From Fidelibacterota bacterium (GTDB lineage: Bacteria; Fidelibacterota; Marinisomatia; Marinisomatales; S15-B10), in the NCBI GenBank assembly GCA_046861655.1, contig JBHIAI010000001.1, positions 43,027 through 107,026 on the forward strand: 64,000 nucleotides of DNA. The letters are read 5' to 3'. Made by a program: the position numbers. Below are positions 30,001-48,000 of this stretch, in pieces (the first letter of the stretch is position 1; the number at the start of each line of letters is the position of its first letter).

Positions 30001-33000
30001 CAGGATACTCTCGAGCTCCTTGATCACCAGTTTCAGCCGTGCCATTGAGAACTCTCTGTTTCCAGAGTATTCTGTTCCCAGGTCTTCACTCGTCAGTACG
30101 GTCCGAAGTGCCCTGTCCATGGAACGATTCTGAATTGAACTTCCTTCCCAGCGCTTGATGCTGGCGATTCCGACTGAAATCCTTGTTGCGAGATCGCGTT
30201 GACTCAATGATCTCTGTTTTCTCAACTCTCTTATTTCATCTCCGGTAAGCAGCCCCACTTTCTTTCGATAGACATTCGAAATGGTTTTTTGAATCGCGGT
30301 GGTTTGGTCTGTAGTACCTATCTCGATCCCACATCCGGGGCATTCGAAATACTCCGCCTCAATCGTAAAACTCTCGCCGCGGAACTCGATACTTTCGACC
30401 TTTGTGACCAAATTCATCTCACCGTGATCATTGGGGCAGAATTGATGTTGTTTTGTCATTCTCTGGCTGATCGTAGCTTTCCATCAAGCTCCTTGTAGCT
30501 AGGTCTCGGCAACCACGAAATTTACGGTATCAAATGATACCATACAACGAGTGATTTTGTGAAGGCTACCCGCGAGCCTGTCGCATCTGTTCCGTGCGAT
30601 CATCTCCGGTTCGAGAGGGCTTGAAAAAACCCTAATAAAGTGATTACGACCGACCAAATAATGTGATTACCCACACCCACACATCGACTGCTGTGCTTAT
30701 GTAAGGTGCTGCCACCTTTATTTTTTGTTGCAATATACGCCTTTTGTATGCTAACCTTGAAAAAGAACCAAGCGGGAGTGAGGTAGCGAAGCCACAGGTG
30801 AAAAACGAGACCCAACAGGGAGGAAACCATGAGAAACCAATGGGGACCTGACATGGATCACACCTACATACCCCAGGATATAGCCGTGCTGTGCGACAGG
30901 ATCGGGGGAGATGAAAATCGTTCTGGAAAAACTTTTCAGGCAGATTTTATAGTAAATTATGTGTATATTTAAGTATTATTAATTATATTTTCATTATATG
31001 AAACTCTTAATTCTTTAGGTTTGCCATGATTGCCCATGTGGATATGGATTGTTTTTTCGTGGCCATCGAACGGTTCAAGGACCCCTCCCTGGTGGGGAAA
31101 GCCGTGGCCGTGGGGGGGGACCCTGAGAAAGGCCGGTCGGTGGTCACCTCGGCCTCGTACGAAGCCAGGCAGTACGGCATCCATTCGGCCATGCCCATGG
31201 CCGTGGCCATCAGGCGGTGCCCACACCTTGTGGTGGTGCCGGTGGATTTTGAGCGGTATGACCGGGTCCACCTGGAGGTCAAGAAGGTCCTGGAATCGTT
31301 CTCTCCGGCTGTGGACATGACCTCCATCGATGAAGGGTACGTGGACTTGACCGGCACCGGTCGGCTGTGGGGACCTCCCCTGAAGGCGGCAGAGCGTATC
31401 AAGTGGGCGGTACAGGAAGCCACGGGTCTCACCTGTACCGTGGGCCTTGCGAAGAACCGGCTGGTGGCCAAAATCGCCTCGGGCTGGGCCAAGCCCGATG
31501 GACTTCTTCATATTCCACCCCAGCAGGTGGAAAAACTTCTGGCTCCCCTGCCGGTGGAGGCCATCCCCGGAGTGGGCGAGAAAATGGCCGCTACCTTGCG
31601 GTCCCTGGGCCTGGAGAGGGTGGGACAGATCCAGGCGGTGGATGAATCCCTCATGGACGCCACCTTCGGAGCCTTCGGCCGGAGCCTGTGGCGAGCCGCC
31701 CGGGGAGAAGATCCGTCATGGGGGAGAGATCCCGCCAGCCGCATCCCGTCCGGGCGGGACAGGGGTGCGGGACACGGGACATCAAGGAAGTCCATCAGCA
31801 AAGAGATCACCTTCCCGGTGGATACCACCGACCGCAAGTACCTGGTCTCGGTTCTCCACTATCTTACGGAAAAAGTGTGCCGAAGCTTACGACAAAAAAG
31901 TAGGGCGGCCCGGACGGTGAACGTGAAACTGCGGTATGAAGATTTTGAAACCCGCCTTGCCTCGGCCACGTTTAACGAACCGGAAAACAGGGACGAGGCA
32001 ATCTTTTCATCGGCCTGGCGCTTGATGGAGAAGGCCATTACCCGGCGTGTGGGGATCCGCCTGGTGGGGGTTTCCCTGTCGAATCTCACCGGGTGTGTCC
32101 ATCAAACCGACCTGTTTGAGGAAACCGGATGGGTGAAAGGGTGGCAAAGGCTACAGGCGGTGGACCTGACCCGGGAGCGGTTTGGGTTTAATGCCGTCCT
32201 TTCCGGGGAAGCCATCTATCTTCTTGCCTACCCGCCTGACAGGCTCTTCCGACACCGGGGTTCGGTGTGAATAGATAAATGTCTTGATGAAAGTCCGTCT
32301 GGAAGGCATATTCCCGCCGTAGCGGGACAGGTTGTATGGGTGGACATCATATGTGCGATTGTATAAAGGAGACAAAAGGAGGGAAGTCACATGCAGCGAG
32401 GAAGCGTAAACCGGGTCTTTATCGTGGGGTATCTAGGGTCGGATCCTGAAAGCCGGTACACCGCTGCGGGAACCGCCACCACGACATTCCGGGTGGCCAC
32501 CAATGAGTCCTGGCGAGACAGCGAGGGGGAGCTCCAGGAACATACCGAATGGCACCGCTGCGTGCTGTTTGGCAAAGCGGCCGAGATGGCGAAAGAATAC
32601 CTGAAGAAAGGCCGTCTGGTGGCCCTGGAGGGGCGTCTGAGAACCCGCACCTGGGAAGATAAAGAGGGTGTCCAACGGTCCACTACGGAAATCCGGGGGG
32701 ATACCTTTACCATGCTCGGCCGGAGAGGGGATACGGCGGAAGAAGCACCCGAAGAAGAGTCGGAACCGGCCAGCGATGACGATCTTCCGTTTTAAGGCGA
32801 CCCTTTTTAGAACGCGGCCTTAGCGGGGTGACGAGTTTCAGGCATCCCCGCGGCGATTGCCAGGACCAGACAGATCATTTTCAGCCGCAGGTTCTTTTGC
32901 AGCGCTTTTCTTCTGAAGAAAAGCGCGAGACATCTTTTTCATAGGGAGAACCGACACCCGCGTTTGTCTCGCCCAGTGACCTTCTCTTGTCGTCCTTCCT

Positions 33001-45000: not shown

Positions 45001-48000
45001 CAGGCCCGGGCGAAGGGAGGAAAACTGATGCAGTTTCTTTCCTGCGAGGATTTGACCGGCACCTTTGAATGTATCCTTTTCCCGGAAACCTACCGGAAAT
45101 ACGGCCGGCTTATCCGTGACCGGGGACCGTATATCATCGCGGGAACTGTGGAAGACGATTTTGGCCACACCCCGGTCAGGGTGGACAAACTCACCCTTGT
45201 TAGACGTCCATGACGGGAAACCTTACCGGGGGGCTCTAGAAGGGGGACGGACGGGAAGGATCGGAAGGGACGAGGCCGTGAACCTGTTCATTGTTCGCGG
45301 CCGTTGTCCTTTCTATATTTCACCGCTTAGATGAATCTCCTCACGGCGTGCACCACCGATCCATGAAACCCTGGGTTCAGATCAGCCTGGTTCTGGGAGG
45401 GATCATCCTGGTTGCGGTCCTTTTCGCATGGATCTACCTGGATTATCCCCTTCCCCAGTACGAGGGGGAACTGACTCTCGGGGACCTGGAACGCCCTGTC
45501 GAGGTATTCTTTGATGACTATGGGGTACCTCATGTGTACGCGGACAATGAACACGATCTTTTTCTAGCAGCTGGCTACATCGCGGCCCGGGAGAGGCTGT
45601 TTCAGATGACGGTCAACGCCGCGGCGGTGCAGGGAAAACTGGCGGAATTGTTCGGTGAGGACGCCCTGGCCGAAGACATATACTTGAGAACCTGGGGGAT
45701 ACCCAAGATGGCCAGGATCCTGGCAGACAGCATGGCCCCGGAGGCGAGAACCATTTCCGGCTATTTCTGCGATGGCATTAACGCCTACATCGATGAGGTC
45801 AAGGGGAAACTGCCTGTGGAGTTCAAGCTTCTCGGTATCCAGCCCCTCCGGTGGGAACCGGCCCACGTGGCCGGGATGGTCCGGCTGATGGGACACAATC
45901 TTACTTCTTCGTGGAAGCCGGAGATTGTTCTGGGGCAGGTGGCCACTATTTTCGATGAGAAGAAAGCCAGGGAAGTATGGCCCGCTCATCCTGAAGGGTA
46001 TCGACTGGGGTCCACCGATGGAGAAGAACTTTATGGCCTGTTGGGTACCGCTCTGATGGAGAGGGACAGAAGCGTCAGGAACATCCTGGGGATGGCAGGA
46101 GATCACCTGGGGTCCAACAACTGGGTGATCTCCGGAGCCCGGACCGCCAGCGGAAAACCCATTCTGGCCAACGATCCCCATCTTCCATACTCCCAGCCGG
46201 CTACCTGGTACGAAATGCACCTGGTGGGGGGACGATTCAATGTGAGCGGGGCGTGCCTGGCCGGAATCCCCGTTCCGGTCCTGGGACAGAATGGGGCCTG
46301 CGCCTGGGGGTTTACCAATCTCATGGTGGATGATGTGGACTTCTTTGTGGAGACCGTTGATCCAGAGGATCCGAACCGGTACCTCCATGATGGTGTGTGG
46401 CTGGGTATGGATCTCCGGGAAGAGACCCTGTCCGTCAAAGGAGGGATGGATACCACCGTGACCATCCGGGAAACAATCCACGGCCCGGTCATTTCAGATA
46501 TTCACCCCCTACTGAGGAATGGGGACCGAGTTGTTTCCATGCGGTGGTCGGGGCACGATGTGAGCGATGAGATTTACGGTCTTCTTCAGCTCACCCTGAT
46601 GAGGAACTGGGAGGATTTTTCCCAGGCCGCCCGGTCCTTCGGAACTCCGGGACAGAATGTGGTCTATGCCGACACAGCAGGCAACATCGGGTGGCGGCCC
46701 TTTGCCCGGATTCCGATCCGGAAGGGAGGAGCCACGGCGATGCCCGTATCGGGAACATCATCGGAATGGGACTGGAAGGGATACATCCCCTTCGACGAGA
46801 TACCCTTTGTGCTGAATCCTCCATCGGGACTCATCGCAACCGCCAACAACAAAGTCTTCGATGATTCCTACCCTTATTACGTGTCGGACTTCTGGCAGGA
46901 TCCCTCCCGGGTCAACCGGGTCTGGGAGTTGATCGGGGATGAAGACGCCATCACCATGGACATGGTGAAGAAAACCCAGACCGACGTGGTGTCTCCCTTC
47001 GCCCGGGAGGCAGCCAGGTATTTTGTGGAGGCGTTTAAGACCGAAACCATATCCCCCCGTCCGGAAGGGCCGGAAAGTCAGAGGTTGGAAAAGAGGAATC
47101 TGGAGAGAGCCGTAAAGCTTCTGGATGGGTGGGATGGTGACCATTCGGTTGAATCGGCGGCTGCGGCCGTATTCAATGCTTCCCTGTCCCGGTTGTTCGA
47201 GAATCTTTATGGCGATGAAATGAGACTGATGGGGGAGGGGTTCTATGAGGGGTGGTTGAGCCTTCCCAGTTTGCCCACGAAAGACCTGCGCCGCATTCTG
47301 AGGGGAGGTTCCTGTTCATGGTGTGATAACATCGAAACCAGGGATAAGGTGGAAGGGGTGCAAGATCTTCTGAGACGTTCTCTCCAGGAGGGAGTGAGAG
47401 ACCTGGAAAGAGCTCTGGGGCCTGATCCGGCCAACTGGGAATGGGGTCGGCTTCATACGGTCACTTTTGAACATCAAATCGGCCGGGTCAGTGCGATCCT
47501 CGAATTCGTGTTTGATTTCAACGTGGGGCCCTATCCGACGGGGGGAACGGTTACCACCATAAACAAGGGGGAATTCCGGTTGTATGACCCTTATGATCAG
47601 GTAGTGGGGCCTTCGTTCCGGCGAATCGTTGACTTTTCCGATCTTGACCGGACTCAGTTTATCCTTCCCACCGGCCAATCGGGACTCCCCAAGAGTAACC
47701 ACTATGATGACCAGGTGTCGTTGTACCTTTCCGGGGAATACCGGACGACCTTTTTCAACCGCGAGACTATACGACAGGCCGGCTTTCAACATCTTGTTCT
47801 GTCCCCCGGAAGCTGACCAGACCGATGATGGAGCCGGTCCTGATGGCGTCCTATGGATGTTAGTCGTTTGTATGCCAAGGGACCCTTGAAGATCGGGCAC
47901 CGGGGAGCTCCAAAGGGGGCGCCGGAGAATACCGTCGCATCGTACCTGAAGGCACTGGAGGCGGGTCTTGACGCCATCGAAATAGACGTGATTGCCACCC

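Follow-up and report, generated by a model that had tools for sequence, protein, structure and literature searches.

C-family DNA polymerases are described with PHP, palm, thumb and fingers domains in one chain (PMC3666897), and the PHP domain is retained even when catalytically dead, for reasons that are only partly understood. In the 64,000-nucleotide stretch analysed here (the window), from a Fidelibacterota genome of an uncultured marine family, a PHP domain and a PHP-less polymerase core are encoded by two separate genes, which raises the question of whether their products form one enzyme. We consider it roughly 80% probable that they do, as a two-subunit SOS polymerase in which a catalytically dead PHP protein acts in trans as a scaffold.

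Organization of the locus

The initial annotation described a Y-family polymerase gene, ssb, a 256-aa PHP gene and an 806-aa core, with about 8.9 kb between the halves. This layout was recovered as described (Table 1), the distance measuring 8,876 bp with about 11–12 unrelated genes inside, and the separate replicative DnaE1 (1146 aa, PHP and core) placed on contig C192 was found in the same genome. The intervening block carries asnC, a DAO oxidoreductase gene, glnA, an M28 peptidase gene, RHH and ParE-type genes, and further genes for a PD-(D/E)XK protein, an NTPase and, on the minus strand, rpiB. Contigs from three metagenome runs of one study, possibly the source samples, span the 5' boundary of the core, and one metagenome contig spans the PHP stop. 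Because of these bridging contigs and the identical split in 12 other species, an assembly artefact was rejected.

Table 1. Features of the split polymerase locus (positions in the window)
Feature	Positions	Strand	Remarks
Putative LexA-type operator box, T[AG]TAC-N7-GT[AG][CT]	30734..30750	+	Overlaps extended -10 region upstream of polY
polY, Y-family polymerase	31026..32270	+	Intact active site, QxxLF clamp motif, RecA-NT-like tail
ssb	32391..32795	+	
Degenerate box copy	33134..33150	+	Across PHP start codon
Stand-alone PHP subunit, probably metal-less, 256 aa	33146..33916	+	C-terminus just past LPxF linker motif
Intervening block	34019..42583	.	Outside the polymerase; ends conserved, middle variable
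PHP-less DnaE2B-type core, 806 aa	42793..45213	+	Divergent from rpiB; no box upstream
Penicillin-amidase-family gene	45291..47816	+	Conserved downstream neighbour marking core site

Relationship between the PHP protein and the core

Sequence comparison confirmed that the PHP gene and the PHP-less core correspond to the two parts of a single DnaE2B-type polymerase, the break lying in the PHP–palm linker. The 34 closest core clusters (56–100% identity) all lack PHP, and the next 86 comprise 84 fused and two partial proteins. A profile of the PHP protein scores 59–146 bits against those 84 fused proteins, over most of the profile length, compared with 35 bits against DnaE1 of its own genome. The junction is complementary, with about 13 residues in the split pair versus 11 in fused forms. 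In our trees, all of which are quick trees, the split cores form one clade (support 100) whose sister is a fused protein (support 97–99), and the PHP tree does not single out one fused protein as the sister. Sequences and trees show a single cut of an ancestral dnaE2B gene in the linker, after which each half became a gene of its own. The split may have arisen by duplication with reciprocal loss, double inversion or insertion, and gene orders fit all three; the gene block is also present in family f8, where both halves are missing, and it is inverted in family f10. No fused sister gene was found in 307 genomes of the class (search at E ≤ 1e-215).

The core contains palm, thumb, fingers, HhH and OB domains and lacks a CTD (Pfam matches to NTPase, finger, HhH and OB; none to PHP). 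Its catalytic motifs DID and KID are intact, the outer aspartates of DxD and the aspartate of KID being invariant across 23 cores, and it has the elements expected of a C-family polymerase: a palm carrying the catalytic aspartates, a thumb, fingers and HhH. The single-polypeptide arrangement of PHP, palm, thumb and fingers (PMC3666897) is not found, the PHP being separate in all 13 enzyme-bearing genomes. The DnaE2 traits are present, namely absence of the CTD, a disrupted PHP metal site and a DnaE1 alongside. In a quick tree of 32 rows, in which the two Bacteroidota references are labelled DnaE2B by their dinB–dnaE context, the core groups with Bacteroidota dinB-linked DnaE2 (support 98), apart from DnaE1/E3 and DnaE2A. 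Core (538 bits) and PHP (61 bits) fall below the 939-bit cut-off of NCBIfam NF004225, as do 10 fused relatives (650–756 bits), and this model appears to represent DnaE2A. A non-essential, damage-inducible, error-prone role is putative, the absence of the enzyme from genus g2 and the LexA-type box described below being indirect signs only.

In the PHP protein, eight of nine metal-ligand positions could be mapped from DnaE1; they read HHDHEHDH in DnaE1 and IKEKEREN in the PHP protein (the last three poorly aligned), with identity at one of the eight. The ligand set of active PHP phosphoesterases and proofreaders, HHDHEH[C/H]DH, is absent, and on the strength of the lost ligands the stand-alone PHP protein is probably a catalytically dead PHP barrel.

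The neighbouring Y-family polymerase

The product of polY retains the catalytic motifs D-M-D and S-I-D-E and hence is not ImuB-like, contrary to what had been suggested. It is the sole PolY match in this genome, and one match occurs in each of 13 of the 15 genomes of family S15-B10. All 11 aligned sequences have the active-site motifs and a tail which we take, by eye, to be a RecA-NT motif; the protein ends after this tail and is too short for an ImuB-C domain. A RecA-family search, made only at E ≤ 1e-50 and not aimed at ImuA, returned one match per genome. Neither an inactive ImuB with ImuB-C, nor membership of the DnaE2A clade, nor the DnaE2A C-terminal motif was found. The earlier label of a two-subunit mutasome is supported in its first part, while the second gives way to a DnaE2B-type polymerase with an active PolY, as opposed to an ImuA–ImuB–DnaE2A mutasome.

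A LexA-type box at the PHP gene

A box that we take to resemble the N7 box of Acidobacteria and Alphaproteobacteria is present at lexA, polY and 10 of 12 PHP genes, and upstream of none of 12 cores. It is strong at the PHP start-codon position in nine of the 12 genomes scored, degenerate in this genome's own genus, located directly before lexA in relatives, and absent before recA. A symmetric weight matrix from nine lexA sites (one misregistered) was unspecific and was superseded by other scoring. The same operator stands at lexA and at target genes, as in a LexA regulon, and LexA presumably binds it. Judged from the motif, LexA would repress polY in general and the PHP gene in most genera, with no recognisable box at the core. 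This unequal placement points to the supply of one subunit as a possible gate on mutagenic synthesis. A tentative and rather doubtful extension is that the two-gene arrangement serves as a switch: the core would be produced free of LexA control yet stay unstable or silent, DNA damage would lift LexA from the small PHP gene, and the dead PHP subunit then made would turn the error-prone polymerase on. UmuD', which licenses UmuC, offers an analogue. A co-regulated 63-aa protein with four cysteines may be a further subunit.

Joint retention and predicted assembly of the halves

Both halves occur together in the same 13 of the 15 family genomes. The PHP gene had been reported from every family genome searched; the two without it also lack the core, and the relatives' cores do lack PHP, a check that the initial annotation had left to be made. 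Neither half was found in these two genomes of genus g2 (G001 and G002), which have a completeness of 76% and 64% and a biased composition. In a quick tree g2 nests among split genera; ssb and asnC are adjacent in G001 (the PHP site), and rpiB and penA in both (the core site). Neighbours of both halves are conserved in all 11 relatives fetched, and the halves lie 7–15 kb apart across the family. Their joint retention or loss suggests an enzyme assembled from two parts.

The PHP–core complex was modelled with a score of 0.84 (best control, 0.00); the score mark was reached by 116 of 157 solved pairs and two of 215 mismatched pairs, and halves of a split gene can pass it because they resemble single-chain Pol III structures already solved. 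At least 95% of contacts are shared between runs, and partner pLDDT is at least 83. The model supports binding of PHP to the core: PHP would dock on palm, thumb and fingers in the manner of single-chain Pol III alpha, and the docked pair would rebuild an accessory polymerase devoid of proofreading. In E. coli, Pol III is stabilised by a PHP that lacks metal (PMC3666897). Gene context and what is known of the family suggest that the enzyme works in the SOS response together with RecA and the active PolY, the role proposed for DnaE2B–PolY–RecA systems. Predicted contact columns of PHP are better conserved than its other columns (0.76 versus 0.62), and those of the core stand at 0.84 versus 0.81 in the rest of the core (p 0.33), burial being uncontrolled in both comparisons.

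It is conceivable, but unlikely, that the core functions without PHP and that the free PHP has been retained for a different role, for example to connect PolY or some other partner as an adaptor. Such a division would suit the much faster divergence of PHP (mean identity 53%, versus 76% for the core) and the core contact residues, which are not conserved beyond the rest and have a slightly higher polarity than those of fused forms; moreover, PHP is a docking surface for ImuB-C in modelled ImuA–ImuB–DnaE2 complexes (PMC12926913), and jumbo phages have a PHP-free minimal Pol III (PMC7824862). However, the halves are present or absent jointly, the best-kept PHP residues face the core, and PolY is too short for ImuB-C.

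The PHP gene is under purifying selection, with dN/dS of 0.19–0.36 (nine unsaturated pairs); for the core the range is 0.11–0.19 (eight pairs). These PHP values and the joint loss in a nested genus make survival by chance unlikely, and the proposal of a functional rather than a broken gene holds. The converse, that both halves are remnants decaying or kept by chance, is largely refuted and very improbable: although the core is spread over four frames in G013 and frameshifted close to its end in G005, and DnaE2 enzymes are dispensable (PMC3919608), the PHP frame is open in 13 of 13 genomes and persists at 37–76% identity, and the G013 breaks coincide with ~70-nt duplications resembling assembly joins.

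Equally improbable is that a split intein, a trans-spliced intron or removal of the DNA between them joins the halves back into a single chain. The halves do lie on the same strand and in the same order, and a split intein rejoins cyanobacterial DnaE (PMC5054071), but only 4–7 variable residues follow LPxF in the PHP protein, no intein domain was found at the break, and no Rfam intron family matched positions 29000–47000. Nor are the boundaries conserved at the DNA level; the block carries housekeeping genes and no recombinase among the genes scanned, and the listed matching contigs of four metagenome runs include no PHP–core joint. Intein, intron and excision were rejected on the missing intein domain, Rfam intron and joint contig.

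Least probable of all is an unrelated, active phosphoesterase near a truncated polymerase by chance, the recruitment considered in the initial annotation: PHP phosphoesterases that stand alone are widespread and turn up further down the fold search, but all top matches are Pol III alpha or PolC, the best NCBIfam match is an error-prone polymerase model, the protein matches fused relatives of the core at their N-termini far better than it matches the genome's DnaE1, the PHP end meets the core start, and most metal ligands are lost.

Comparison with known systems

The split enzyme resembles DnaE2B–PolY–RecA systems of Bacteroidetes type (PMC12926913) in its grouping with Bacteroidota dinB-linked DnaE2 (98), lack of a CTD, disrupted PHP site, accompanying DnaE1 and active PolY whose tail is RecA-NT-like; one of its close fused relatives is located in a lexA...polY–dnaE cluster. 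Unlike in those systems, PHP and core are here two genes 7–15 kb apart, ssb separates polY from PHP, and the halves carry different upstream signals. With the ImuA–ImuB–DnaE2A mutasome it shares an accessory C-family polymerase by a Y-family gene and probable LexA control, but it belongs to a separate clade, has no C-terminal RDF/RNF motif and accompanies an active PolY, the only one per genome; the known systems are single-chain. Cyanobacterial DnaE1 (PMC5054071, PMC3919608) is likewise a C-family polymerase from two distant genes, but is replicative and spliced by an intein into one chain, whereas the present enzyme is intein-free and cut at the PHP–palm linker. In group 2.2 jumbo phages, the split minimal Pol III (PMC7824862) also has an intein-free catalytic subunit from two distant genes with predicted reassembly, but its cut falls within the catalytic domain, and it has neither PHP nor the other domains of Pol III; in the present case the cut lies at a domain boundary of a full cellular enzyme, which retains PHP. 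PolX-like stand-alone PHP proteins (PMC12926913) share the freeing of PHP from a polymerase, but they are of the X family with the matching polymerase half undescribed, whereas both halves are kept here and the PHP is probably metal-less.

No such PHP/core split was found in the literature searched; the supplements of PMC12926913 could list PHP-less sequences. The 2026 survey distinguishes 11 mutasome types, and this architecture is not one of them. As a natural, selected, intein-free split, the pair would allow the core to be assayed with or without its own PHP, or with that of another species.

A viral origin found no support: viral contigs contained no relative of the PHP alignment, and phage and plasmid matches to the core, judged by identity, were all below 60%. 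Most short matches in the representative-sequence search continue into core sequence, resembling truncated fused genes. A second stand-alone PHP group (P0134, P0135) has only 31–39% relatives in the metagenome scan; of these 80, 51 are fused, 25 run off the contig end and four have an earlier stop.

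Gene organization

The DnaE2B-type polymerase is encoded in two pieces separated by 8,876 bp and, as judged by reading frames and domain matches, the initial annotation was right to describe a PHP-only protein and a PHP-less core; the separate 1146-aa DnaE1 that it placed on contig C192 is likewise borne out as the sole further C-family match in the genome. We propose, with a probability of about 0.8, that the PHP subunit and the core would form a two-subunit, proofreading-less polymerase acting with the Y-family polymerase (PolY) and RecA following DNA damage.

Genes of the split polymerase and its upstream neighbours (window positions)
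Feature	Position	Strand	Evidence
Y-family polymerase gene (polY)	31026-32270	+	ORF
ssb	32391-32795	+	ORF
PHP gene, 256 aa	33146-33916	+	PHP is the only domain match
Core gene, 806 aa	42793-45213	+	Pol III alpha NTPase, finger, HhH and OB domains; no PHP

All 30 bins are covered by contigs from three hydrothermal-vent metagenome runs of one study, possibly the samples from which the genome came. Three metagenome contigs span the 5' boundary of the core and one spans the PHP stop; a PHP-to-core joint occurs in none of the contigs listed from four metagenome runs. The region of the PD-(D/E)XK gene (window 39398-39852 and 40270) shows strain variation across three runs, including a frameshifting indel pair and a 9-nt insertion. 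Upstream of polY, a segment of lower GC (window 26465-30854) encodes an S24/HTH repressor, an ECF sigma factor and an MqsA/Panacea-type antitoxin, and was not seen in the fetched regions of relatives.

Common origin of the two halves

The PHP gene and the core are one gene that was cut once. A PHP profile scores 59-146 bits on 84 fused relatives of the core and 35 bits on the DnaE1 of the genome. At the fission point, the PHP protein ends 4 residues past the LPxF motif and the core starts 9 residues ahead of the first palm-side helix; together these make about 13 residues, vs 11 in fused forms, so nothing was lost or doubled. In our trees, all of them quick searches without bootstrap, the split cores make up a single clade (SH-aLRT 100) whose sister is the fused P0279 (97-99), from a cluster that contains a Fidelibacterota record; ten stand-alone PHPs group together (92), although which fused protein is their sister is left undecided by the PHP tree. 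When named references are included, the core joins Bacteroidota dinB-linked DnaE2 (98), outside DnaE1/E3 and DnaE2A, and is thus of the DnaE2B type in the scheme of PMC12926913. A 49% relative in an Acidobacteriota genome lies within a lexA...polY-dnaE cluster.

Distribution and maintenance

The split is conserved, and its halves are present and absent together. An open PHP frame of 245-285 codons is found in 13 of the 15 genomes of the family, named S15-B10 in the initial annotation, and a close core in exactly the same 13; the earlier finding of the PHP gene in every family genome searched thus does not extend to all 15, and the frame is intact wherever the gene is present. Core frames comprise 700-875 codons in 12 of the 13. 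Upstream polY-ssb and downstream asnC-DAO flank the PHP gene in 11/11 fetched relatives, as do a divergent rpiB before and penA after the core (11/11), and both halves lie on one contig and strand, 7-15 kb apart, in six genomes from four genera.

PHP is missing from the cores of relatives too: none of the 34 core clusters nearest in sequence (736-870 aa at 56-100% identity; one is probably partial) has it, and the next 86 among the matches listed are fused (84) or partial (2). Source names on homologues are Marinimicrobia, Neomarinimicrobiota and Fidelibacterota, and, of 401 phylum genomes sampled, those in which the close core was found all belong to the family. Outside it, the PHP profile matches 162 genomes, for the most part in frames of close to 1,000 codons; 19 such genes that we cut out are fused and just 33-37% like the core, and five aligned PolY partners have degenerate motifs.

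Both halves are maintained rather than broken, in agreement with the original reading: dN/dS is 0.19-0.36 for PHP (nine unsaturated pairs), 0.11-0.19 for the core (eight pairs) and 0.12-0.28 for polY, pairs from one genus not being independent, and the PHP frame is open in 13/13. PHP diverges faster (mean identity 53% vs 76% for the core). Against maintenance, the core of genome G013 occupies four frames, although the duplications of ~70 nt at which it is interrupted are possibly assembly joins; the core of G005 is frameshifted close to its end.

The two genomes with neither half (76% and 64% complete) make up genus g2, nested among split-bearing genera (100 and 93 in a DnaE1 tree with composition-biased rows). 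In G001, ssb adjoins asnC and rpiB adjoins penA; the rpiB-penA junction is also seen in G002, an incomplete genome in which no ssb site was found. This reads as joint loss from two sites. lexA, recA and a 63-aa protein gene were not found in these small, incomplete genomes either, which hints at loss of the whole regulon.

Several side observations concern other lineages. Fused DnaE2B of a different type stands behind PolY with degenerate catalytic motifs in other phylum families (L109-L128); S15-B10 has an unrelated subtype with an active PolY, which suggests cassette replacement. Stand-alone PHPs that branch deeper (P0134, P0277, P0278, P0135, P0141; 244-286 aa, on contigs of at most 20 kb), together with deeper cores that lack PHP (P0027, P0045), suggest that the split predates the family. 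An asnC...rpiB block between ssb and penA, without polymerase halves, occurs in families f8 and f10 (L265, L266 in G177; L286, L289 in G211), inverted in f10.

State of the PHP protein and predicted contact with the core

The DnaE1 metal ligands HHDHEHDH read IKEKEREN in the PHP protein (8/9 positions mapped, the last three poorly aligned); judged from sequence, the domain has lost most of its ligands and would be catalytically dead. Descent from an unrelated phosphoesterase is disfavoured by the profile matches to fused relatives and by a structure model (pLDDT 69) for which the PHP domains of Pol III alpha and PolC rank above free phosphoesterases. Modelled as a complex, PHP and residues 1-615 of the core are predicted to be in contact, with a score of 0.84 (best of three controls 0.00; the mark is reached by 116/157 solved and 2/215 mismatched pairs), a pass that may stem from likeness to solved single-chain Pol III structures; at least 95% of contacts agree between runs, and partner pLDDT is at least 83. 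The 41 PHP contact columns are better conserved than the other 211 (0.76 vs 0.62, p 0.0005; 17/21 rows, burial uncontrolled), and core contact columns no better than the rest (0.84 vs 0.81, p 0.33). In E. coli, altering the metal-less PHP reduces both stability and activity (PMC3666897), which fits a scaffold role. The presumed partner PolY keeps its catalytic, clamp and RecA-NT-like motifs in 11/11 aligned sequences and gives a single match per genome in 13/15 family genomes.

PMC3666897 places PHP, palm, thumb and fingers on a single polypeptide in every C-family enzyme, and PMC12926913 terms PHP universally present; none of the 11 mutasome types in the latter survey, which is limited to complete genomes, has a free PHP, and in this the split DnaE2B differs from them. 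Among the ~945 genomes of PMC3919608, one has a PHP-less DnaEX and three have an N-terminus left unassigned, with no PHP partner shown as a protein of its own. Known splits are a cyanobacterial DnaE1 joined by an intein (PMC5054071) and a PHP-free minimal Pol III of jumbo phages cut within the catalytic domain (PMC7824862); phage C-family enzymes with attached PHP are described in PMC3201878. Our literature search, mostly outside subscription journals, found no account of such a PHP/core split; it is real, conserved and apparently an undescribed variant of DnaE2B.

A LexA-type box at the PHP gene

The motif T[AG]TAC-N7-GT[AG][CT] lies directly ahead of lexA, and LexA would be expected to bind it. 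A strict pattern, defined after inspection of the sites at lexA, polY and PHP, matches 41 times in 15 genomes (a reversed control, 6 times); almost every one of the 41 falls at lexA, at polY, at the start of PHP or at a conserved gene for a 63-aa four-cysteine protein. A matrix from 27 training sites that exclude PHP (background 95th percentile 5.6) gives 13-23 bits at 10/12 PHP genes, nine exactly over the start codon, and maxima of 8.1, 7.3 and 2.8 at cores, asnC and DAO genes (n = 12 each). Ahead of recA the box is absent in 12/12. Relative to the -10, it lies on the upstream side at polY and on the downstream side elsewhere, a placement consistent with an operator. In the window genome and a congener, the PHP box is degenerate (-1.1 and 0.8) and the polY box perfect; since a search found no + strand terminator between ssb and the PHP gene, read-through from polY to PHP is possible. 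A bolder and less probable reading is that the PHP subunit would be the inducible switch of a core whose expression LexA does not control.

A 61-63-aa protein with CxxC and CxC, a candidate SOS or mutasome accessory protein, is encoded directly behind a perfect box, beside a divergent pepA-like gene (L243:1553-1741 in G009; L236, L238, L239, L240, L257, L260; L250 on C143 of the same genome as the window), and is present in family f8 too; its top-ranked Atlas look-alikes include no Pfam family. The leader of polY contains, between promoter and start codon, a conserved element of ~25 nt (GGGAGTGAC...GCGGAGCC-like; window 30766-30795 and, in relatives, L241, L247, L258, L261), a possible RNA element with no Rfam match. 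The starts of PHP (window 33134-33150), lexA (L209-L217) and rpiB (window 42581-42600) have no obvious ribosome-binding site and are preceded, a few bases upstream, by an AT-rich hexamer, which suggests leaderless mRNAs.
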